Below, piece after piece: positions 22,999-46,195 of a stretch of DNA of 64,000 nt (within the stretch, counting starts at the first letter, position 1; each line of letters starts with the position of its first letter). The notes under the pieces are model-generated. The model was not told where the DNA came from. It did no database searches and worked only from the letters and a program-made list of their open reading frames with translations. Origin of the DNA: Acidiferrobacterales bacterium (GTDB taxonomy: Bacteria > Pseudomonadota > Gammaproteobacteria > Acidiferrobacterales > SPGG2); assembly GCA_046760105.1 (NCBI GenBank), contig JBHIDJ010000004.1, forward strand, positions 17,285 to 81,284. Reading direction: 5' to 3'. The position numbers were made by a program, and so were the translations under genes.

Positions 22999-23075
<77 letters not shown>

Positions 23076-35080: not shown

Positions 35081-35154
35081 GGATGGGTCGGAACTCGCGC
35101 CGGCGCTGTATTTTGCCTTACACCACTATAATAATAACGAACGTGAGGACAGTT

Positions 35155-38100
35155 ATGAGACCAGATCGCGAACCTTTGAGTGCTTCCTATTATACGTGTT
35201 GTCGCCACGCTTACGTATTATCACGCTATCCCCGGTTTCTTTGTACGGTGGTTTTCGTTTTAGGGGCCGTATTCAGCACCGTGACGTGTGCCGCGATCAA
35301 GCTGTCACAGACAATTGCTTCGAGCAAGGGCACGGAGGGCAGTTTTTCAGCGATCGCCGGCATAACGATGAGCGAGAATGGCACGCTATACCTGACAGAT
35401 AATCGCTCTGGCAGACTCGTCCGCTTCGGCCCCTCCGGCAGCACATCAATCGCCCTTGCCGGTCAAGATCGTGTGTTCAAATCCGGTCGTCTCACCGGTG
35501 CCGCGAGCGTTGATGACGCACTGCTGGCGATCGCGAATGCAGGCGACAGCAGCGTGGCGATCATCGATGAGGCAGGGCGACCGCGTTACTCATTTGGAGG
35601 CCGCGGCAGTGACGATGGGCAGCTAGACGCACCAGTCGGGCTCGCCTACTCGCCGCGAGGACGGTTCTATGTTGCCGACAGCGGCAACGATAGGATCTCT
35701 GTTTACAGCGGGGATGGAATTTTCCTATTCAGTTTTGGAGACAAGGATCCCTCAGGTAAGACAAATCTGAAGAAGCCAGTTCATGTAGGCGTAGATATTG
35801 ACGAGAACATTTACGTCCTCGATGACTACGGTGGCGACAGGATCTCGGTCTATGATCATACCGGCACGTTGCTGAAGCGCATCAGCAGTGAGGAGTTGAG
35901 AGGTCACACACGCAAGCCACCAAAGCTTACTGCCATGACAGTAAGCCTCCATGGCGAGATATTTCTCGCCGACGGAAACAACGGGAAGATATTGCAGCTC
36001 GACTGGCGCGCCGGCCAAATCGCCAACACCTTCGGCAGCAAAGGCAAAGGTCGCGGGCAGTTCTCAAGAATCACCGCGTTGGCCGTAACCCCTTTACACC
36101 AGCTGGTTGTCGGGGACGTTCGCAACAAGAAGATAGAAATCTATGACCTTATTCCTTCGGTAACGCGCACCCCGACCGAAGACCTGCGGTTGCCTTCGAT
36201 CAGATTGGGTGAGAGCTATGGCCTCGAGTGTGATAAGGCTTACCCAATGCCAGGCGATTCGATCCTATGCCTGAGCACGGCCAAGCGCACCGTAACGCGC
36301 GTGTCACGTAAAGGAAAGGTCGTACAGACTTTTGAAGGTCCCTTTAAGAACCCGATGCTGGCGGCGACGGACGATAACGACGTGATTGTCGTCGATGGCA
36401 ACCGGCTCAAGGTCTATTCGCACGACGGGAAGCAACGTTTTGCGTTCGGCGGTAGTGGCTCCAAAGACGGGCACTTCAAGCAGATCACCGGTGTTTACTT
36501 GCGCGACCGAATCTATGTTGCTGATACTGGAAAGCGTGTTCAGATTTTTTCGCGCGACGGCGTTTTTCTCGACAAGCTTGCCAGCCGCAAGGGTGAGCAA
36601 AAAGTGCTTCGCAATCCTGGACCGGTTGCCGTTGACACAAAGGGCAATCTTTATGTAGCAGACAGCGGGTCCAGCAAGATCCGCGTTTTCTCTCCGAAGA
36701 AGAAATTATTGTATGAGCTAGGTGAGGGCGCAAAGTCTCCTAATCGTTACAGAGGCTTTAGCGCCATGACCCTGGACCAAGACGACAACCTCTATGTCTT
36801 AGCATCAACCACCCGCAACGCACGTACAGTGCACGTCTACCAGGGCAAGAATCGAGTATTCTCGTTCGGTTCCTCGGGCACACAACGTGGAGCTCTGTCG
36901 GATGCGACGTCATTGACCGTGCTGTCTCCGATTAAGACCGAAGTCAGCATATACGACAAGAGGCGCCAAGCGCTGCAAACCTTTCAGTTTCTTCAGGTTC
37001 CGACGAAAGTCGATGAATTACGCGCAAGCGGCGGTGTGGGAAAAACGAAATTACGCTGGCACAGGGTACCGGGTAGTTTTATAGATCATTACTCGCTTTA
37101 CGCAGCGGTGCAGCTGAAAGGGCCTTATGAAAAAATTCTAGAAACCGCAGAGACGACGGTCACGGTCACGCATGATGATGATAAGCGTTATGTTTATTAT
37201 CGCGTAGCGGCGGTGAGCGGTTTCGAGGTCGAAGGTGTAGCCTCGCAAGTGGCGGAGGATTTGTTCCAGGCGGCATACGGGCTGTACGAAACGAAACAAT
37301 ATGCTGAGGCGGCCGAATTGTTTGCACAGCTCTACGACGCTGATGCCCAGCACGGCGAGGCGCTCGAGTTCTTTGGTCTGAGCCTTCTTGGTCAGAAAAA
37401 GTATGAAGACGCACTGCGCCGCTTCCGTGCCTTGGCCAAGATCCCCGGGTTCGAGATAAGGAGTATTAACCGCCAGACCGAGTCGTTGTTTGCATCGAGG
37501 CAGTTCATTGCGGCACGCGCTATGGTGGACAAGGCTATCTCCCAGAATCAAGTGGACGCCTTGACCTATCTGTGGTGTGGCAGGATTGCCATGAAACTGG
37601 GTGATGCGGCTGGTGCAGCAGACTGCCTGGCGAGTGCGATCAAGCTTGACGAAGATATGGTATCCGCGCACGCCCTTCTCGGGCAGGCCTACCTTACGGT
37701 TGGTGCGACCGACAAAGGGTTGGCGCAACTTGATAAGGCGTTGGATATCGCACCGGAAAATCCCGTAACTTGGGTGCAGAGCGGACTCGCCTACCAGTCG
37801 CTCGGCAGACACGAAGAAGCACTCTCGCGCTTCAACAAGGCACTGGCTATCGACAAGCTTAACGGTGCTGCGCGTCTGGGGGCAGCCCAGAGTTACTTTG
37901 ATCTGAAGGACTACGAGCAGGCGCGCTCGATCGCGCTGTCTATGTCCGGGGTGCCTGCACAGGAAGCCGCTGGGCAATATCTGCTCGGCATCATCGAGCT
38001 AGCGCGTGGCCAGCCGCAAGAGGCAGCACTCTCGCTCACCAAGGCAGCTAACAGAGATCCTGAGAATGTCAAAGCGTGGCTTGCTCTGACGGAGGCCTAT

Positions 38101-40197
38101 TTGCAGCTCGAAGACGATGCTAAGGCGCGATCCGCGTTGCGTCAGGCAATAGCCGCCGGACCTGCATCGTTTGAAGCCCACTTTCGTCTCGGCATGCTCG
38201 AACAGAGGAGCGAAAACCATATCGCCGCGGCCCGAGCCTTAGCCACGGCGGTAACGATGCAACCGGCGCACTATGAATCGCGTTATGCCTATGCTGTTAG
38301 CCTATTAGCACTGGAAGGCTTGCCGGAGGCCAGTGAACATGCCAAGCGGGCGGCGCGGCTGTTACCGAAAAGCAGCGATGCGCTTGTTTTGCTTGCGGAC
38401 ATCGCTCAGCGGCAAGGTAAAGAGGGTGATGCCATAAATTATCTGAAGAAAGCGCTGGCTCGGAACCCCACATCGGCAGTTATCGAAATCGAGCTGGGGA
38501 AACGTTACCTGGAGAACAATATATTCGACCTTGCGCAAATACATCTTGAACAAGGCACGTTAAAGGACACGAAGAATGCGGTACCGCACGCCCTGCTGGG
38601 TCAACTTTTCTTGAAGCGACGCCTCTACGACCAGGCAATTGAAGCGTTTACCAAAGCAGTTGAGCTTGATGCCAGCGAACAAAATAGACTGCAACTGAAC
38701 ATCGCCTTTGCGGAAAAGAAGAAATCGCTGGAGTTGCCATATCACGCTCCGCTCATCGCCCTGCAGGATTTACGTCTGCATCAGGTGTTCGCTGCAGCAT
38801 ATAAGCGATACACGAACGAAGCGGTAGGTTCTATCAAGGTCGCCAACACCGGTGAGACTGAGTACAAGGATCTTAAGCTCACTTTTCATATCAAGGACTA
38901 CATGGATTTTCCCACCAGTCGACGGATCGAACGGTTGAAGGCGAACGATACTGTGGAAGTATCGCTGTTTGCATCCTTTAACAACAGGATTCTGGACATC
39001 GACGAGGACACCGGCCTGTTAGTCGAGGTTAAGCTCAACTTTTACAGGAATGGGAAACAGGATTCGATTGATGTAACCCAGCCGATGACCATCTATGGGA
39101 AGAACGCTATCGTATGGCGTGATCTGAATATGGTCGGCTCCTTTGTTACGCCTAAGGATGAGACACTGAAGGATTTTGTGCGCCAGGCGATCAACAACTA
39201 TCGACCTGAAAGCGGATCGCTCAACGACAACATTGTCTCGGCCATGACCTGGTTCAATGTACTGTCCGCACATGGTATGAAATACGTGGTAGATCCCAAC
39301 AGTCCGTTCCCGGAGCTGACCAAAGATCAGGTGGACTACGTGCAGTTTCCACGCGAGACACTATGGGTAAAAAGCGGTGACTGTGACGATTTATCAGTCT
39401 TGTTAAGTGCTGGACTGGAAAATCTCGGTATAGAAACCGCGCTGGTGGACATTCCCGGCCACCTGTTTTTTATGTTCAACAGCGGCCTTTCGCAAAAGGA
39501 CAAGAATTTCATCAGCTTGCAAGATGACCTGATGATCATTCGCGACGGCGAGGTGTGGATACCGCTGGAGACGACCATGATCGCAACATCATTTTCCGAG
39601 GCATGGGCCGAGGGTGCGCGAAAATACAACAAATGGAAGAGCACAAATGAACTCCGCGAGATTCCGCTAAAGCACGCCTGGCAAAAATACTTTCCGGTGA
39701 CGCTTCCGCCCGCGAAGTACGCGCTGGAACTAGCGAACGAGAAGCATGCAAAAACGCTCATCGACCGGGAGCGGTCTGTGTTGGTAACGAAAAGCCTGGA
39801 ACGTTTTATCGTGCCCTATCGGGCTATGCTGGAAAGCGACCCCAATGACCTTGAGGCGCGCATGCAGATCGGCATCACGTACGCGAAGAATGGTCTTTAT
39901 GATCTCGCCGTCGATGAGTTTGAACGAGCACTGCAGATCGATCCGAACGACAGCGCGGTGCACAACAATCACGGCAACATATACTATATTAAGGGAGATT
40001 ATGAGCGTGCATTGGAAGCCTATCGTCGCGCCGAGGAGTTCGATCCGCAAGACGCCGGCATAAAAGTCAATCTTGCGCTTACGCACTACCGTCTCGGAAG
40101 GCTCGCGGATGCAGTAGCCAAGCACGCTGAGGCAATCGCGCTCGACAAGGCGTTTGCCGAAAAGTACGAGACGTTGCAAAAACTCCTGACGCACTAA
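35155..40197 (+). CDS. Large exported NHL-repeat / FN3 / TPR protein with transglutaminase-like domain
   Basis: ATG at 35155 behind GAGGA; hydrophobic signal segment; repeated FG..G...GQ(F/L)...YVAD.GN; FN3-like LRW...YYRVAAV; many TPRs; QFPRETL...GDCDD...PGH...WIPLETT. Confidence 0.8.
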   Translation: MRPDREPLSASYYTCCRHAYVLSRYPRFLCTVVFVLGAVFSTVTCAAIKLSQTIASSKGTEGSFSAIAGITMSENGTLYLTDNRSGRLVRFGPSGSTSIALAGQDRVFKSGRLTGAASVDDALLAIANAGDSSVAIIDEAGRPRYSFGGRGSDDGQLDAPVGLAYSPRGRFYVADSGNDRISVYSGDGIFLFSFGDKDPSGKTNLKKPVHVGVDIDENIYVLDDYGGDRISVYDHTGTLLKRISSEELRGHTRKPPKLTAMTVSLHGEIFLADGNNGKILQLDWRAGQIANTFGSKGKGRGQFSRITALAVTPLHQLVVGDVRNKKIEIYDLIPSVTRTPTEDLRLPSIRLGESYGLECDKAYPMPGDSILCLSTAKRTVTRVSRKGKVVQTFEGPFKNPMLAATDDNDVIVVDGNRLKVYSHDGKQRFAFGGSGSKDGHFKQITGVYLRDRIYVADTGKRVQIFSRDGVFLDKLASRKGEQKVLRNPGPVAVDTKGNLYVADSGSSKIRVFSPKKKLLYELGEGAKSPNRYRGFSAMTLDQDDNLYVLASTTRNARTVHVYQGKNRVFSFGSSGTQRGALSDATSLTVLSPIKTEVSIYDKRRQALQTFQFLQVPTKVDELRASGGVGKTKLRWHRVPGSFIDHYSLYAAVQLKGPYEKILETAETTVTVTHDDDKRYVYYRVAAVSGFEVEGVASQVAEDLFQAAYGLYETKQYAEAAELFAQLYDADAQHGEALEFFGLSLLGQKKYEDALRRFRALAKIPGFEIRSINRQTESLFASRQFIAARAMVDKAISQNQVDALTYLWCGRIAMKLGDAAGAADCLASAIKLDEDMVSAHALLGQAYLTVGATDKGLAQLDKALDIAPENPVTWVQSGLAYQSLGRHEEALSRFNKALAIDKLNGAARLGAAQSYFDLKDYEQARSIALSMSGVPAQEAAGQYLLGIIELARGQPQEAALSLTKAANRDPENVKAWLALTEAYLQLEDDAKARSALRQAIAAGPASFEAHFRLGMLEQRSENHIAAARALATAVTMQPAHYESRYAYAVSLLALEGLPEASEHAKRAARLLPKSSDALVLLADIAQRQGKEGDAINYLKKALARNPTSAVIEIELGKRYLENNIFDLAQIHLEQGTLKDTKNAVPHALLGQLFLKRRLYDQAIEAFTKAVELDASEQNRLQLNIAFAEKKKSLELPYHAPLIALQDLRLHQVFAAAYKRYTNEAVGSIKVANTGETEYKDLKLTFHIKDYMDFPTSRRIERLKANDTVEVSLFASFNNRILDIDEDTGLLVEVKLNFYRNGKQDSIDVTQPMTIYGKNAIVWRDLNMVGSFVTPKDETLKDFVRQAINNYRPESGSLNDNIVSAMTWFNVLSAHGMKYVVDPNSPFPELTKDQVDYVQFPRETLWVKSGDCDDLSVLLSAGLENLGIETALVDIPGHLFFMFNSGLSQKDKNFISLQDDLMIIRDGEVWIPLETTMIATSFSEAWAEGARKYNKWKSTNELREIPLKHAWQKYFPVTLPPAKYALELANEKHAKTLIDRERSVLVTKSLERFIVPYRAMLESDPNDLEARMQIGITYAKNGLYDLAVDEFERALQIDPNDSAVHNNHGNIYYIKGDYERALEAYRRAEEFDPQDAGIKVNLALTHYRLGRLADAVAKHAEAIALDKAFAEKYETLQKLLTH

Positions 40198-40224
40198 GCA
40201 AGGTGGTTTTGCGGGGTATGTCAT

Positions 40225-40788
40225 ATGCGAAGGGTGTTATTACTAAGTTTGACGATCACTTTCGCCTGGGCGCCGTTGGTGGCGGAGGAGAACAAAGCGG
40301 CAACTACCGATGTTGCAGTCGAGACGGCAGATCGGGGACCCGCTGTCAAGCGTATTTTCGCTCGTGTATGGGCGCGCTTACGCGCCTACATACCGAGGCC
40401 CGCGGCGCTTGCGCCGACAGCATCGGGTACGCAGATCGCAGGGGTGCGCGGGGCCGAGGCGACTAGCAGCGGGCTACAACCTTATTGGAAAGGAGATAAG
40501 ACAAGCGATCCCGCTTTTGTCGAAGAGGCGGAAATCTTCGTGGCTGCCGTCGAGCTGGCCGAAGCGGGAGAGTTTCAGCAGGCGGCTGCCGCGTTCAAAG
40601 CCTTCAGTGTCGCCTACCCGGATAGCAAGCTAAGTCCCAATGTGCAGTTCGCCTTAGGAGTGGTTTACGGGCAGCTGGGGAATACCGAGGAGGCGGTAAC
40701 CACGCTGAAGGCGTTTGCTCGATCTCATCCCACACATCCGCTGGCAGAGGATGCGCGGCAGGTGATAACGGGACTGCAAGAGCGCTAG
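40225..40788 (+). CDS. Exported TPR protein (CpoB/BamD-like C-terminus) with AGVRG motif
   Basis: Signal peptide MRRVLLLSLTITFAWAPLVA; TQIAGVRGAEA; AFKAF...YPDS...F.LG...HPTHPLA. Confidence 0.72.
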   Translation: MRRVLLLSLTITFAWAPLVAEENKAATTDVAVETADRGPAVKRIFARVWARLRAYIPRPAALAPTASGTQIAGVRGAEATSSGLQPYWKGDKTSDPAFVEEAEIFVAAVELAEAGEFQQAAAAFKAFSVAYPDSKLSPNVQFALGVVYGQLGNTEEAVTTLKAFARSHPTHPLAEDARQVITGLQER

Positions 40789-40862
40789 TTGCGAAAACCC
40801 GGAAGTACGGCCGTGGCGGCGCCGAATGTTCGCCCCTACCTAGTCTTCACACGAGCAGTATC

Positions 40863-41013
40863 GTTAGCTACAAACCACTGTGAGGCTGCCTGCTGAGGGC
40901 GGCCATCTTTACGGCGCCATCGGGCGAGCGCGACGGGCACGAGCCCCGAAATCCGACCCATGGATTAAATCCCCACAAGGTCGGCGAGACACATCTCGCG
41001 AAGCAAAACCAAC
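40863..41013 (-). ncRNA. Candidate structured ncRNA (unassigned family)
   Basis: Possible closing stem gttggt/gctaac; hairpins cgaga-tgtg-tctcg, ccgacc..ggtcgg, cggggc-tcgt-gcccg; upstream promoter-like motif. Confidence 0.5.
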
Positions 41014-41018
41014 GGAAC

Positions 41019-41047
41019 TGTCTAGCAGAATCAGGCATGATTCGTAA
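41019..41047 (-). promoter_or_regulatory. Possible sigma-70 promoter for the candidate ncRNA
   Basis: TTACGA-17 bp-TAGACA with an extended TG; the -35 overlaps a heptamer repeat so may be coincidental. Confidence 0.35.
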
Positions 41048-41110
41048 GTCGTAAATGCTGAACCCCATGATTCGGGAATCTTGGATATGAGGCATGGGTT
41101 GTGGAGATGC

Positions 41111-41159
41111 TTACGGTTTACGATTCGCCGCTTACCCTTCACGGTTCACGAATTACGAA
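41111..41159. repeat. 7 x 7-bp degenerate tandem repeat (consensus TYACGRW)
   Basis: ttacggt ttacgat tcgccgc ttaccct tcacggt tcacgaa ttacgaa; inverted units at 41041-41054. Confidence 0.7.
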
Positions 41160-41787
41160 TCATTAGTCCTTCAACCTCTTTTAACGTTGCCCGCCTCAGC
41201 GGTTTGCCATTGACGGGGCTTAAAGGCGCCTCGCGAGCTGCCTCGCGGTTAAAAACGTAAACTTCGATAGTGCAAGCATCGGCAGTGAAGCGATACACTG
41301 GGCAGCTCTCAAAACGCTCGCCGCCATAACGTATGCGCTTGTCGAGCTCTTCGAAAGGGATGCTGTGTTCGTGCAGGAGCAGACCGATTTCCTCCGGTGT
41401 ATCCGCACACACATGGATTTGAATTGCCGATTCGGGCGTGACGGTACCGCTGAGGACAGATCCCACGAGGCGCGGTTTAAACCTGGAGAAGAATTGCATA
41501 GCCTCGATTGCTAGCTCGCGCAGCCGTCTTAGTGTTCCGGATAGCCGTTCTGCGTGAAAGAGCTGCAAGTACTCACGCAACGACGCTTCTACCTCTTGAT
41601 TGGTCGGTAGATGTTTGTTGTCTGGAACGTTAAGACGGTTGGCAGCCTTACGTTTGGCGGCATGAAAGTCACGTACACCTTCGCCCGCCATAATACGTGC
41701 TGCCTCGACGCTGATGTGTTGGCGAAGCTGTGCTTCCGCGCGCGGCGTGGGTCTAGCTGCGCGCCGCAATCGCGTCTTGCTACCCAT
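41146..41787 (-). CDS. Hypothetical protein with degenerate nucleotidyltransferase-like fold
   Basis: EAARIM..EG.RDF..AKRKAA..L...LPTNQEVE helical domain; PRLVGSVLSGT..PESAIQIH resembles GS...SDID without the Asp residues; start overlaps mrcA stop. Confidence 0.7.
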   Translation of the reverse strand: MGSKTRLRRAARPTPRAEAQLRQHISVEAARIMAGEGVRDFHAAKRKAANRLNVPDNKHLPTNQEVEASLREYLQLFHAERLSGTLRRLRELAIEAMQFFSRFKPRLVGSVLSGTVTPESAIQIHVCADTPEEIGLLLHEHSIPFEELDKRIRYGGERFESCPVYRFTADACTIEVYVFNREAAREAPLSPVNGKPLRRATLKEVEGLMIRNS

Positions 41788-44345
41788 CAGAAAAGTTCCT
41801 TGGGGATAACTTGGGCCGGTGGTGCTACTACGGGGGGTAGCCCGTCGTTCTCTTCGTCGGCAACCTCAGCTTCTGGCGTTACGGGCTCGGTACCGACGAG
41901 GAAATACTCTACGATTGCGGATGGGCTCTCCGGATAGGTGGGTTCACCGGTCTCGCGATCGACGCTCACTGCTACCACACCGTCCGGTACCGGCAACGAT
42001 TTCTCGGACAGTCCCTTCAACGCTGTGTCCATGTAATCGATCCAGATCGGTAGAGCAGCACGCGCCCCAGCCTCGCCCGGTCCGAGCGATGTCGGTTGGT
42101 CGAAGCCGATCCAAGTCGTGGTGACTATATCGGGGGTGAAACCCGAAAACCACGCATCATGGAACTCATTCGTGGTACCGGTCTTGCCCGCAAGGTCTGC
42201 ACGGCCAAGCACCAACGCCCGTCTGCCGGTGCCCCGGGTGATCACGTCCTTCATTACACTCGTTATAATGAACGCGTTCTCTTTGCTGATAACACGTGGT
42301 GCATAGCGGGGTTGGAGCGCCGGTGTCTCCGCGGTCATCGGATCAACGTTCCGCACGACCATGGCAGGTCTATTATCGGGACAGTCCTCGCAAATCACGC
42401 TAGGGTTGGCCTGCTCAAGAATATTGCCATCGGCGTCTTCGATGCGACTAATGAAGTAAGGTTCCACCAGATAGCCACCGTTGGCGAATACGCCGAATGC
42501 GGTGGCCATCTGTAGCGGTGTCGCTGATGCCGTGCCCAACGCCAAGGAGAGGTTGCGCGGAAGCTTTGCACGCTCGAAGCCAAAACGTTCCAGGTACTCG
42601 GCTGCGTAATCCGGTTCAATATGCCGCAGCAGTCGTACCGACACGAGGTTGAGTGAGAGCGTAAGTGCCTTGCGCAACGGTGTTGGCCCGAAAAACTTCC
42701 GGCTGTAGTTGTGGGGCCGCCAGACATCCTCCAGCCCGGAATCTTGTTCAGAGATTACGATGGGTGCACCGCTTACGGGGGTGGCGGTGGTAAAGCCCTT
42801 TTCCAACGCGGCGGAATAAATAAATGGCTTCAGGTTGGATCCCGGCTGCCGTTGCGCCTGGATCGCGCGGTTGAACTTGCTACGGTCAAAATCGGAACCG
42901 CCGGTCAGCGCGAGAATGGCGCCATCGGTCGGGCGCAGTGAAACCAACGCCCCTGCTATTTCTGGCAACTGCGCAAGAAGCCAGTACCCTGGTTCATCCT
43001 GACCTTCGGTTTCATCATTTTGGTTTTCGGTTTTTTGTTTCTCGGCAACCTCCGTTTTTTTCTCCGCGTACTCCAAATAGATAATGTCGCCCGGTGTGAG
43101 AATGTCGGCTGCCTTCGTAGGGGCGGGTCCGCGCGTGGTTTCATCTATGTACTTACGTGCCCACGATAATCCGTCCCAGCCGATCTCCACCATATAGCCG
43201 TCCTGCGTGTAAACGCTCGCTGTCTTTTCGCCGAGTGCAAACACGATTCCCGGTAACAGCTCGCCGACAGCACGGTAGTCCTTGAGGATATCGTCTAGGT
43301 ATTCCTGATCGATCTCGGCGCCGCTGATACCGACGTGGCCGGCGGGGCCACGGTAACCGTGGCGCCGTTCATACGCGCGCAACCCGCGACGCAGGGCCCA
43401 ATTGGCCGCTTCTTGGTAGTCCGCGCGGATAGTGGTGTAGATGTGAAAGCCGCCACCATAGCTTTCCTCGTCATACCGCTCCACCATGTATTGCCGTACC
43501 ATTTCGCCAATATATGGCGCCTCAACATCGTATGTGAGAGCGTTTTTGGTTGCCGTAAGTGGAGATTCTTTGGCGGATTCATAAGTTTCGTCATCAATGA
43601 AGTCAAGCGCGCGCATGCGGTGTAGCACATAATCGCGTCGTTCGATCGCGCGGTCAGGATTGCTTAAAGGGTTATTGCGCGAAGGTGCCTTTGGCAGACC
43701 GGCGAGCGTAGCGGTCTCTGGCACTGTTAACGCATCCAGGGATTTGCCGTAGTAGACACGTGCGGCGGCCCCAAAACCGTAGGCACGATGACCGAGAAAG
43801 ATCTTATTTAGGTAGAGCTCCAGGATGTCCTTCTTAGTCAGTTGGCGCTCGATTTTGAACGCGAGCAGGATCTCTTTGAACTTGCGGGTATAGGTTTTCT
43901 CCGGGCTCAAGAAAAAGTTTCGGGCCACTTGCATGGTAATGGTGCTCGCACCTTGGCTGTGGGTGCCGGTGCGGAGGTTATGCCATGTGGCACGCGCGAT
44001 CCCCAGGAAATCGACACCGTAGTGGTTGTAGAAGTCGTCGTCCTCCGCCGCAAGAATCGCCTTGATCAGCAGAGGCGGAACCTGATCGGCCGTTAGAAGA
44101 ATACGTTTTTCCTCACCAAACTCCGCCAGCAGCCGGTTGTCTGCTGAGTAAACGCGCATGGGCACTTTGAGGCGTTCTTCGGAAAAATCGATGGACGGCA
44201 GTTGCGGCGTGAAAATAAGGGTCGCTATGGCCACAATTAGAGCTGCGCTCACGAATAATCCGAACGATATAAGGGACAGAAGCAACCACGGTCTGCGTGG
44301 GAGAGACCGGCGCACTCGAGATCCTGAAGAAGAGGGGTCGCTCAT
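41787..44345 (-). CDS. mrcA: Penicillin-binding protein 1A
   Basis: AAED, QGASTITMQVARN, RQPGSNLKP (SxxK), SLN, GKTGT; start reset to MSDPSS. Confidence 0.95.
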   Translation of the reverse strand: MSDPSSSGSRVRRSLPRRPWLLLSLISFGLFVSAALIVAIATLIFTPQLPSIDFSEERLKVPMRVYSADNRLLAEFGEEKRILLTADQVPPLLIKAILAAEDDDFYNHYGVDFLGIARATWHNLRTGTHSQGASTITMQVARNFFLSPEKTYTRKFKEILLAFKIERQLTKKDILELYLNKIFLGHRAYGFGAAARVYYGKSLDALTVPETATLAGLPKAPSRNNPLSNPDRAIERRDYVLHRMRALDFIDDETYESAKESPLTATKNALTYDVEAPYIGEMVRQYMVERYDEESYGGGFHIYTTIRADYQEAANWALRRGLRAYERRHGYRGPAGHVGISGAEIDQEYLDDILKDYRAVGELLPGIVFALGEKTASVYTQDGYMVEIGWDGLSWARKYIDETTRGPAPTKAADILTPGDIIYLEYAEKKTEVAEKQKTENQNDETEGQDEPGYWLLAQLPEIAGALVSLRPTDGAILALTGGSDFDRSKFNRAIQAQRQPGSNLKPFIYSAALEKGFTTATPVSGAPIVISEQDSGLEDVWRPHNYSRKFFGPTPLRKALTLSLNLVSVRLLRHIEPDYAAEYLERFGFERAKLPRNLSLALGTASATPLQMATAFGVFANGGYLVEPYFISRIEDADGNILEQANPSVICEDCPDNRPAMVVRNVDPMTAETPALQPRYAPRVISKENAFIITSVMKDVITRGTGRRALVLGRADLAGKTGTTNEFHDAWFSGFTPDIVTTTWIGFDQPTSLGPGEAGARAALPIWIDYMDTALKGLSEKSLPVPDGVVAVSVDRETGEPTYPESPSAIVEYFLVGTEPVTPEAEVADEENDGLPPVVAPPAQVIPKELF

Positions 44346-44537
44346 AGTGTACGTTCGACAGCTGAATTCAGCGCACGCCGAATCAGCCCGAACCTCGGGC
44401 CGCGAAGTATAAATCGAAACCAATCATCGCCAAAGGCATATTTGTCACTTCCGCTCGCCATGGTCTATATTTGGGGGTAGTATTTAACGTGCGTTTGCAG
44501 CTATCTCTCATAAGTACATGAGTTAAAACGAGATTTC

Positions 44538-45614
44538 GTGGGCGTCTTAGACAAACTATTTGGCAAAGGTAGACAGCCTGTAATTGGCATAGACGTCAGT
44601 TCGTCTGCCTGCAAGGTGCTCGAGCTCAGCCGGGCCGATGAGCACCTGCGCGTTGAGCGTTATGCGGTTGAACCCCTACCGCAGAATTCTGTTGTCGAGC
44701 ACGCTATAACCGAGGTCGAGCAGGTCGCGTCGGCGGTCGAACGTGCGGTAAAGCGCTCGGGGACCCGCTGTAAGCATGCAGCCGTAGCGGTAGCTGGGGC
44801 GCATGTGATCACCAAGACTATCCGGATGCCGGCCAATCTGAATGACTCGGAGCTACAAACACAAATCGAGATGGAGGCGGATCATTACATCCCGTATCCA
44901 CTCGATGAGGTGAACATGGATTATCAGGTGTTAGGGCCGGCCGAAGATAACGCGGAGGAGCTCGAGGTGTTGATGGCTGCATGCCGCAAGGAAATCGTTG
45001 ATGATTACGTGGCCGTCATCCAGGCGCATGGACTGACCCCTGCAGTTGTCGATATCGAGACATACGCCATGGAAAACGCTTATTCGCTTATTGCCCAACA
45101 CATGCCAGGCGGGGGCATGGAGAAGACGGTTGCGATGCTCGATGTGGGCGCGACGACGACGAATATCAACGTGATTCACAACAATCGTTCGGTTTACAGT
45201 CGCGACCATACATTTGGCGGACGTCAATTGACTGAGGAAATTCAAAGACGTTACGGATTGTCGTATGAAGAAGCGGGTCTGGCCAAGAAGCAAGGTGGAT
45301 TGCCGGATAACTACCAGACCGACGTGCTTCGCCCATTTATGGAAGCAATGTGCCAAGAGGCCATGCGCGCCTTACAGTTTTTCTATTCCTCGAGCCCCTT
45401 CAATAGTGTCGATCAGTTGTTGATGGCAGGTGGGTGCGCGCAAATCCCAGGGATTGACGAAATGGTCGCCGCGCGCATCGGTGTGCCGGCCATGGTGGCG
45501 AATCCTTTTGCGAGTATGTCACTCGCTTCGCGCATCAAGCCGCAAATGCTGGCCAACGATGCACCCTCGCTGATGATCAGTTGTGGCCTCGCGTTGCGGA
45601 GTTTTGAGCAATGA
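44538..45614 (+). CDS. pilM: Type IV pilus assembly protein PilM
   Basis: IGIDVSSS, YIPYPLDEV, GGRQLTEEIQRRYG, CGLALRSF. Confidence 0.96.
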   Translation: MGVLDKLFGKGRQPVIGIDVSSSACKVLELSRADEHLRVERYAVEPLPQNSVVEHAITEVEQVASAVERAVKRSGTRCKHAAVAVAGAHVITKTIRMPANLNDSELQTQIEMEADHYIPYPLDEVNMDYQVLGPAEDNAEELEVLMAACRKEIVDDYVAVIQAHGLTPAVVDIETYAMENAYSLIAQHMPGGGMEKTVAMLDVGATTTNINVIHNNRSVYSRDHTFGGRQLTEEIQRRYGLSYEEAGLAKKQGGLPDNYQTDVLRPFMEAMCQEAMRALQFFYSSSPFNSVDQLLMAGGCAQIPGIDEMVAARIGVPAMVANPFASMSLASRIKPQMLANDAPSLMISCGLALRSFEQ

Positions 45615-46195
45615 CCACGCAGCTCAATCTACTTCCCTGGCGCGAGATGCGCCGCAAGGAGCAGGATCGCCAACTGCTTACAATGGCGATCAGTGCGTGG
45701 ATATTGATGGGATTGATCGTGTTTTACGCGCATCTGCATGTCACTGGACTAATTGACGATCAAAATCGGCGTAACGGGTATCTTAAGCAGGAGATTGCCA
45801 AGGTTGATAAAGAGATAAAAGAGATCAAGGAACTCAAGAAGCAGCGCCAGGCATTGATCGCCCGTATGAATGTCATCTATGAACTGCAAGGCGACCGCAC
45901 CCAGATCGTCCATGTGTTTGACGATCTTGTACGCAAGTTGCCCGAAGGTATCTATTTCAGGACGCTCAAGCAGACGGGTAAGAGTATCGCAGTGAAAGGT
46001 GTCGCACAGTCCAACGCACGCGTGTCGGCACTTATGCGTAATCTCGATGCATCCGAGTGGTTTGCCAGTCCCAATCTCAACATCATAAACGTCAAGGAGG
46101 ATGGCAATGACCGGGTCAGCGAGTTTACACTAAAAGTGAAGCAGACATCGAAGGCGAAGACGGATAAGGGACAACAAAAGGGGTCGGGCTCGTGA
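45611..46195 (+). CDS. pilN: Type IV pilus assembly protein PilN
   Basis: LNLLPWRE; GVAQSNARVSALMRNL. Confidence 0.95.
   Translation: MTTQLNLLPWREMRRKEQDRQLLTMAISAWILMGLIVFYAHLHVTGLIDDQNRRNGYLKQEIAKVDKEIKEIKELKKQRQALIARMNVIYELQGDRTQIVHVFDDLVRKLPEGIYFRTLKQTGKSIAVKGVAQSNARVSALMRNLDASEWFASPNLNIINVKEDGNDRVSEFTLKVKQTSKAKTDKGQQKGSGS

Follow-up and report, generated by a model that had tools for sequence, protein, structure and literature searches.

A probable pseudo-nucleotidyltransferase encoded behind mrcA in Gammaproteobacteria, and the spacer that follows its gene

Class A PBPs (penicillin-binding proteins) of Escherichia coli have several regulators, LpoA/LpoB, CpoB and the SPOR proteins, which are tied genetically or physically to PBP1A/PBP1B. 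In a separate field, proteins with the nucleotidyltransferase (NTase) fold that have no catalytic residues can serve as RNA-binding scaffolds; NF45/NF90, with their DZF domain, and Utp22 are non-catalytic and act in RNA-protein complexes. Here we describe a gene, called X in this text, that lies directly behind the PBP1A-type gene mrcA in a 64,000-nucleotide (nt) stretch of the genome of an Acidiferrobacterales bacterium (assembly GCA_046760105.1, contig JBHIDJ010000004.1); this whole stretch is referred to as the window, and all coordinates are positions in it. The original prediction, made from the letters of the window, held that X encodes a degenerate NTase and that a structured RNA of about 150 nt, encoded downstream of X, may be its partner in a ribonucleoprotein (RNP). 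The analysis presented below makes it quite likely that X is a conserved, PBP1A-coupled pseudo-NTase of an uncharacterised family, and that the stretch downstream of it is a spacer, not a gene for a partner RNA.

Compared with the described systems, X stands apart on both sides. Protein X has neither a signal peptide nor a membrane segment, has no hydrophobic segment (maximum KD19 0.82) and has an isoelectric point (pI) of 9.6, and is therefore assigned to the cytoplasm, whereas LpoA/LpoB, CpoB and the SPOR proteins reside in the periplasm or outer membrane and have unrelated folds. The DZF domain of NF45/NF90 (4at7) and Utp22 (4m5d / 7mq8) share the fold of X (Z 6.5-7.0), but these proteins are eukaryotic and much larger, and have no sequence relationship with X.

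Coupling of gene X to mrcA and distribution of the family

Gene X (41146..41787, minus strand) is an open reading frame (ORF) for a basic, soluble protein of 213 amino acids (aa), with an N-domain at residues 15-78 and an NTase-fold domain at residues 79-205. The mrcA gene (41787..44345, minus strand) encodes a class A PBP of the PBP1A type with Transgly, PCB_OB and Transpeptidase domains. At the coupling junction between the two genes (41785..41801, minus strand), the TGA of mrcA (41789-41787) and the ATG of X (41787-41785) have base 41787 in common, giving TGATG, and an AAGGA motif (41801-41797) is placed 9 nt upstream. The ORF is real, and the overlap of its ATG with the mrcA stop, as predicted, amounts to one base. 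At the other end of mrcA, the ORF list puts the start at a TTG at 44423, but the ATG at 44345 is a better fit to the homologues. The product read from this ATG begins with MSDPSSSGSRVRR..., continues into a membrane helix and agrees with the N-termini of 20 relatives, which makes 44345 probably the true start. The cytoplasmic part of PBP1A comprises only about 20 residues and is poorly conserved, with no invariant residue at positions 2-20.

The arrangement seen in the window is repeated across the class. In 70 of the 72 loci whose upstream sequence extends to 200 nt or more, X has mrcA immediately upstream on its own strand; this count includes the window's own locus and the oddly parsed L073, and the two misses have just 413 and 218 nt upstream. 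Other families of the class gave a further 27 loci, of which 25 show this order. The stop and start codons share a base in 52 of the 70 mrcA-X loci, and in the remainder they are mostly 1-5 nt apart. The predicted tie between X and mrcA is thus not peculiar to this genome, and the linkage is of the co-transcription type, with start-stop overlap.

Of 41 relatives, 40 have one homologue of X each. In a sample of 300 genomes spread evenly over the class, 141 carry the gene, each at a single locus (138 of 297 after leaving out G079, G180 and G334, three genomes flagged as unpublished); where G067 and G148 gave several matches, these are neighbouring pieces of a single locus. A profile search returned 2482 clusters at 50% identity (E<=1e-3), nearly all of proteins of about 200 aa. 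The named carriers are metagenome-assembled genomes (MAGs) of Acidiferrobacterales, Ca. Muproteobacteria and Sulfuricaulis, together with Alkalilimnicola ehrlichii and a Thiohalobacter MAG. Where the homologues are annotated at all, they are called 'hypothetical protein'. For X and for 19 stand-alone representatives of the family, every Pfam and NCBIfam model stayed below its cut-off, and a word-based homologue search with the distant member P0270 returned 17 proteins, none of which bears a functional name. The listings and abstract openings returned by a full-text literature search contained no description of the X family or of a gene coupled to mrcA/ponA. One longer protein, P0268 (614 aa), which carries a transpeptidase fragment and X in a single ORF, was considered as a natural fusion and rejected, as its middle looks like out-of-frame translation; it is probably an assembly or frameshift artefact. 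P0268 reaches the Pfam cut-off through the transpeptidase part only.

Fold and active site of protein X

The AlphaFold model of X, built from a 30-sequence alignment (A1), reached a predicted local distance difference test score (pLDDT) of 89.2 and a predicted template modelling score (pTM) of 0.81. Helices at residues 15-36, 41-51, 63-77 and 79-99 are followed by a beta-rich domain, in which the model has the alpha-beta-alpha-beta-alpha-beta core with a mixed sheet that is characteristic of the Pol-beta superfamily. In a VIA search of the PDB, which is independent of Foldseek, all 50 of the matches listed were Pol-beta NTase-fold chains, matched on residues 79-205. The CCA-adding enzyme 1miv came first (Z 8.6, root-mean-square deviation (rmsd) 3.0 over 103 aligned residues); next were Trf4, Pol X, TUT7 and small alarmone synthetases. 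The Foldseek list, too, consists mostly of this fold, with SpoT, MenT1, Pol mu, PAP and Cid1 at its top (E 1e-3 to 1e-2). The nearest ESM-Atlas clusters bear the name 'Nucleotidyltransferase family protein', and PF01909 was found in 18% of the members of one nearby cluster and in 59% of another. The predicted NTase fold is borne out by structure prediction, Foldseek and the PDB fold search alike. Sequence profiles give only two hints, DUF4269 (PF14091) and NTP_transf_2 (PF01909). Against DUF4269, X scores E 0.066, P0155 scores 0.024 and P0286 (discussed below) scores 0.0018, and the Pfam hints stay under the gathering cut-off (13.9-19 vs 28.9 bits), so that X is not a member by the Pfam rule. 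A sequence search of the PDB with the family profile gave a chance match only (CysB, E 0.74).

The closest fold matches to residues 79-205 are the head of class II CCA-adding enzymes and other NTases of RNA 3' ends (1miv, Trf4 3nyb, TUT7, Cid1 and PAP), with Z 8.6-7.7, rmsd 2.6-4.9 and 91-120 residues aligned. Unlike the CCA-adding and PAP-type enzymes, X has no DxD carboxylates and no neck, body, tail or PAP-associated domain, and its identity to them is 10-17%. A sequence link in the same direction comes from P0286, a 495-aa metagenomic protein that is the sole longer relative of X found and is a single sequence. Residues 16-201 of P0286 align with residues 21-209 of X (29% identity, E 1e-22), and both proteins have AKR(E/K)AA and LPTNQE in the N-domain and PRLVGSVL(S/T)G in the NTase head. 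They differ in that P0286 has D-I-D in place of the A-I-Q of X, as well as a C-terminal half with an HD domain, a half that is similar to the Aquifex A-adding enzyme (3wfo, E 6e-17) and to TIGR02692. With its intact DxD, P0286 is the closest relative of the X family that appears to be catalytic, and the likeness of its C-terminal half to an A-adding enzyme links the X-type head, through this one sequence, to RNA 3'-end NTases. No full-length relative of P0286 was found in 200 sampled genomes of the phylum. A phylum-level search with P0286 gave X-like matches in 8 genomes (including G000), all of the same class, and two matches outside the class, both to the C-terminal half; as P0286 is a weak probe, this is not evidence that the X family is restricted to the class. 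The Z values of about 8 in the fold search are only moderate; the agreement of all 50 fold matches, together with the sequence link to P0286, is the ground on which the NTase-fold assignment stands.

The N-domain consists of three helices with invariant AKRKAA and P-x-N-x-E motifs. AKRKAA (codons 41641..41658, minus strand; residues 44-49) is its most conserved motif, and a basic helical N-domain carrying it, as originally described, is present in the model. A48 and P61 are invariant among 149 family representatives, of which 148 have A44 and 145 have K47. Modelled alone, the N-domain reached a pLDDT of 80.1. Its best VIA match was NalC (Z 6.1), which is under the noise level of the tool for helical domains, and the same holds for the TetR-type regulators that make up about 24 of the 50 matches listed, mostly matched at their N-terminal ends. 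Foldseek gave a best E of only 1.2 for the N-domain, and no Pfam helix-turn-helix model matched X.

Catalysis in the Pol-beta NTase fold is described as being defined by three acidic residues (PMC11646218). The corresponding segment of X, LVGSVLSGTVTPESAIQIH (codons 41413..41469, minus strand; residues 107-125), contains the G109-S110 loop, Ala121, Gln123 and then His125, and was counted over the same 149 representatives. The original prediction had noted in this segment a G-S loop with both Asp positions replaced. The segment is present and the Asp pair is lost, but its placement had to be corrected: the DxD positions are 121 and 123, since P0286 has SDIDLH where X has SAIQIH, so that in X they are occupied by Ala121 and Gln123 and followed by the near-invariant His125. 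The loss extends to the whole family, with D-x-[DE] at 121/123 in none of the 149 representatives, both positions acidic in 2, and neither acidic in 88. On the other hand, X carries the hG[GS] loop of catalytic Pol-beta members (G109-S110) and, in E175 on the strand of residues 172-179, the third carboxylate, while the [DE]h[DE]h pattern is missing. G109 is found in 149/149, followed by P in 51, A in 38 and S in 33; G114 is kept in 146/149, His125 in 138/149 and R199, near the C-terminus, in 139/149, and E or D occupies position 175 in 117/149. Judging from these alignments, the term degenerate NTase is correct and describes a property of the whole X family.

These conserved residues also weigh against the pseudoenzyme reading. 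His125, E/D175 and the glycine loop could form a non-canonical rather than a dead active site. The main rival explanation for protein X is accordingly an active enzyme whose site comprises His125, E/D175, the glycine loop, K47 and R199, for example a phospho- or nucleotidyl-transferase or a hydrolase that could act on a cytoplasmic cell-wall precursor or a nucleotide signal. His125 lies on the strand that normally bears metal ligands, G109, G114, K47 and R199 are conserved in the manner of an active or ligand-binding site, and the fold search also matched small alarmone synthetases and Rel/SpoT (Z 7.2-8.1). Two catalysis-defining carboxylates are nevertheless missing as D-x-[DE] in every representative, and no motif match to a known enzyme family was found. 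We consider an active X a less likely possibility, to be kept in mind beside the preferred pseudo-NTase.

The fold matches also include the toxin MenT1 (8an4; Foldseek E 2.2e-3, VIA Z 7.0), and X might be read as a toxin/antitoxin-type NTase (MenT / AbiEii / MNT-like) or as a defence gene that stands beside mrcA by accident. This reading is given almost no credence. It is weakened by the distribution of X, of which 40 of 41 relatives have a single copy and whose place behind mrcA is fixed (70/72 and 25/27 loci); mobile toxin-antitoxin and defence genes are not distributed in this way. In addition, X has no PADLOC match, no conserved small partner gene follows it, and the DxD is absent.

The spacer and the candidate RNA

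The spacer of 357 nt (40789..41145) lies between the converging 3' ends of X and of a tetratricopeptide repeat (TPR) gene (40225..40788, plus strand; 187 aa), whose YbgF/BamD-like TPR matches are weak and below the curated cut-offs. It is single-copy and unconserved. The candidate RNA (40863..41013, minus strand; 151 nt) has a drawable fold, which is no better than those of shuffled sequences, and no homologue was found. The ends gttggt (41013-41008) and gctaac (40868-40863) and the four hairpin strings that had been drawn by eye are all present, yet RNAfold kept the closing stem and only three of the four hairpins, cggggc-tcgt-gcccg giving way to another pairing, and the stability does not exceed chance. 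The minus-strand fold has -57.7 kcal/mol against a shuffle mean of -54.7 (z-score -0.71), and 42 of 200 dinucleotide shuffles folded as well. A 191-nt version gave z -0.83, and eight 100-nt minus-strand windows overlapping the candidate ranged from +0.86 to -0.67. The promoter-like string TTACGA-17-TAGACA with the preceding TGn does occur, but it agrees with the consensus in just 3 of 6 positions per hexamer (6/12; hand count), and a scan of 40700-41250 detected 0 promoter-like and 0 terminator-like sites. A comparison of 40500-41400 with Rfam 15 on both strands returned 0 matches at E<=10, so that the proposed check against known RNA families yielded none. The sole match of the window to Rfam at the gathering score is a tRNA at 23002-23075 (minus strand).

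Elsewhere in the spacer, the segment 41030-41129 was the only one to give a mild stability signal (z about -2 on both strands). It contains an imperfect hairpin, aacccatg...catggggtt (41061..41100, minus strand), which lies about 45 nt past the X stop, has no T-run and may be an operon-end hairpin.

In the own assembly (4.09 Mb in 396 contigs, in which collapsed repeats are not fully excludable) the candidate stretch has one full copy, and the 16 other matches are 15-34 nt long (E 0.03-8). A miniature inverted-repeat transposable element (MITE) or other dispersed repeat was rejected, because the stretch is single-copy. Comparison of the spacer with 80 homologous loci by blastn and tblastx gave nothing below E 0.05. 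A covariance model built from the candidate RNA and its minimum free energy (MFE) structure (R1) found only itself in the window and 98 loci; the runner-up matches (E 0.22 and 0.29) did not lie behind X on the strand of the gene. When R1 was run over the complete genomes of 40 relatives, none of the 8 from the same family had a match, and two chance-level matches (E 0.43 and 0.67) turned up in all. No covariation is computable, since the candidate RNA has no homologues. Conservation or covariation behind homologous genes, on which the idea of a structured RNA behind X depended, was hence not found in these loci and genomes.

Many X homologues seem, from the layout of their loci, to have no room for such an RNA. 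The distance from the X stop to the next ORF is less than 100 nt, or the two overlap, in 41 of 69 other loci, under a crude rule that counts ORFs of at least 110 aa and with 7 further loci having none in the sequence covered. The gene downstream of X differs between lineages. Three relatives have the same converging TPR gene, with spacers of 195, 104 and 32 nt that are unalignable to that of the window.

The window's spacer is thus 160-325 nt longer than those of its syntenic relatives, and it contains two minus-strand ORFs, of 75 and 77 aa, and a plus-strand ORF of 55 aa, which would agree with a hidden small protein gene, a decayed gene or the remnant of a mobile element. We regard this as highly improbable: the two minus-strand ORFs have no Pfam match, the tblastx comparison with the 80 loci was empty below E 0.05, no second copy was found in the genome, and the guanine-cytosine (GC) content of 0.557 equals the window mean of 0.558 and therefore gives no compositional sign of foreign DNA.

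Several observations on the spacer run counter to its interpretation as mere spacer. The first comes from sequencing runs. Four DNA runs from a single hydrothermal-vent study contain the stretch (share 0.91-0.95), and one DNase-treated metatranscriptome run contains part of it (share 0.39), with contigs that span 40705-40971 and 40798-41089. As these contigs cover 40705-41089, the spacer is probably present in RNA, although contigs show neither strand, ends nor abundance, and DNA may be present in an RNA library. Secondly, the plus strand of the 151 nt folds with z -2.04, and only 6 of 200 shuffles were as good. Thirdly, usable flanking DNA came from no relative above 84% protein identity, so that a very young, genus-specific small RNA could escape the comparison. 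A metagenome scan for X yielded 51 loci, none above 64% identity, so that near relatives for a covariation test are absent.

The first two of these observations also belong to the case for an RNP, in which the spacer would encode a young, lineage-specific small RNA on either strand that is bound by X. In addition, the drawn multi-stem fold is the MFE fold of the 151 nt, and X is basic and related to RNA-end NTases. What the RNA contigs show, however, is cover that runs on from the neighbouring gene, and not a discrete small RNA. The contig of record 12 (40705-40971) crosses the TPR stop: 84 of its nucleotides fall within the TPR gene and 183 within the spacer. The contig depth over the spacer in the metatranscriptome run (3.6-3.7) is similar to that over mrcA (4.1-7.8). 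Variant contigs of the RNA run, from near-identical strains, lack 1 nt at 40922, 3 nt at 40936 and 1 nt at 40940. The losses at 40936 and 40940 take out the greater part of one arm of the cggggc/gcccg hairpin; the contigs concerned have low depth, and the deletions may be errors. Moreover, the minus-strand fold of the candidate does not surpass its shuffles, the promoter-like site is weak, and the scan detected no terminator. X is conserved across the class, while the candidate RNA was found in this genome only; an RNA partner cannot account for X, as the RNA is absent from the 40 related genomes in which X is constrained. The proposal that X and the RNA are RNP partners, which stability, conservation, Rfam and promoter evidence all failed to support, is thus very unlikely, and its failure leaves an ordinary spacer beside an interesting orphan family.

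Other contigs and motifs around the spacer were recorded. In a low-depth contig of a related strain, 19 nt within 41072-41098 are missing, possibly through error. In two sequencing runs with related strains, X6 and X8, the contigs listed for run X6 stop at 40907 and resume at 41038, and run X8 has no depth over 40168-41169 while gene X and mrcA are covered; such gaps prove nothing, and no conclusion is drawn from them. Close to where the TPR gene ends, the short motif (A)TTCGGCG(A/C)C occurs at 40812-40826 in the window and twice each in the syntenic relatives L012 and L016; it may belong to the terminator region of the TPR gene. In one genus-level group (L021, L023, L024, L025, L027, L041 and L048) an AT-rich block, CCTTGCCAAG ... 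TTTTCAAGGGnTTA...AAAATAA, is conserved between X and the following gene on the plus strand. The block has the look of a promoter or operator, not of a structured RNA, and bears no relation to the spacer of the window.

Possible role of X and its genomic neighbours

In the preferred interpretation of X as a PBP1A-coupled pseudo-NTase, X would be produced from the same mRNA as PBP1A through stop-start coupled translation at TGATG and would not perform canonical nucleotidyl transfer. It may bind nucleotide or nucleic acid through the retained loop and the basic residues, and could act as a pseudoenzyme regulator or scaffold whose dosage is tied to PBP1A. The GC-rich spacer would be lineage-specific, unconstrained DNA, whose transcription, if any, would be 3'-untranslated read-through of the neighbouring genes.

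The X family is new within a known superfamily, that of the NTase fold, and the noteworthy part is its near-obligate coupling to a class A PBP. Neither Pfam nor NCBIfam has a model for the family, which occurs in 141 of the 300 Gammaproteobacteria sampled and is almost always translationally coupled to mrcA. The linkage is unexplained and could point to internal control of the dosage or activity of a peptidoglycan synthase. A bolder proposal, which we regard as unlikely, is that X is the founding member of a group of cytoplasmic class A PBP partners, a nucleotide- or nucleic-acid-sensing pseudo-NTase that coupled translation keeps in a fixed ratio with PBP1A and that tunes it. If this were true, X would tune the synthesis or activity of PBP1A from inside the cell in roughly half of the sampled gammaproteobacterial lineages.

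Divergent from mrcA are pilM (PilM_2, E 1.7e-136) and pilN (44538-46195, plus strand), and the neighbourhood of mrcA and pilMNOPQ is the usual arrangement. On the other side, 35083-40197 (plus strand) encodes a protein of 1704 aa in which NHL / beta-propeller repeats are combined with many TPR repeats, and the gene for the 187-aa TPR protein follows. The two genes are conserved as a pair, with 54-64% identity over the C-terminal 400 aa of the larger product, and in several relatives (L012, L016 and L033) they converge on gene X.

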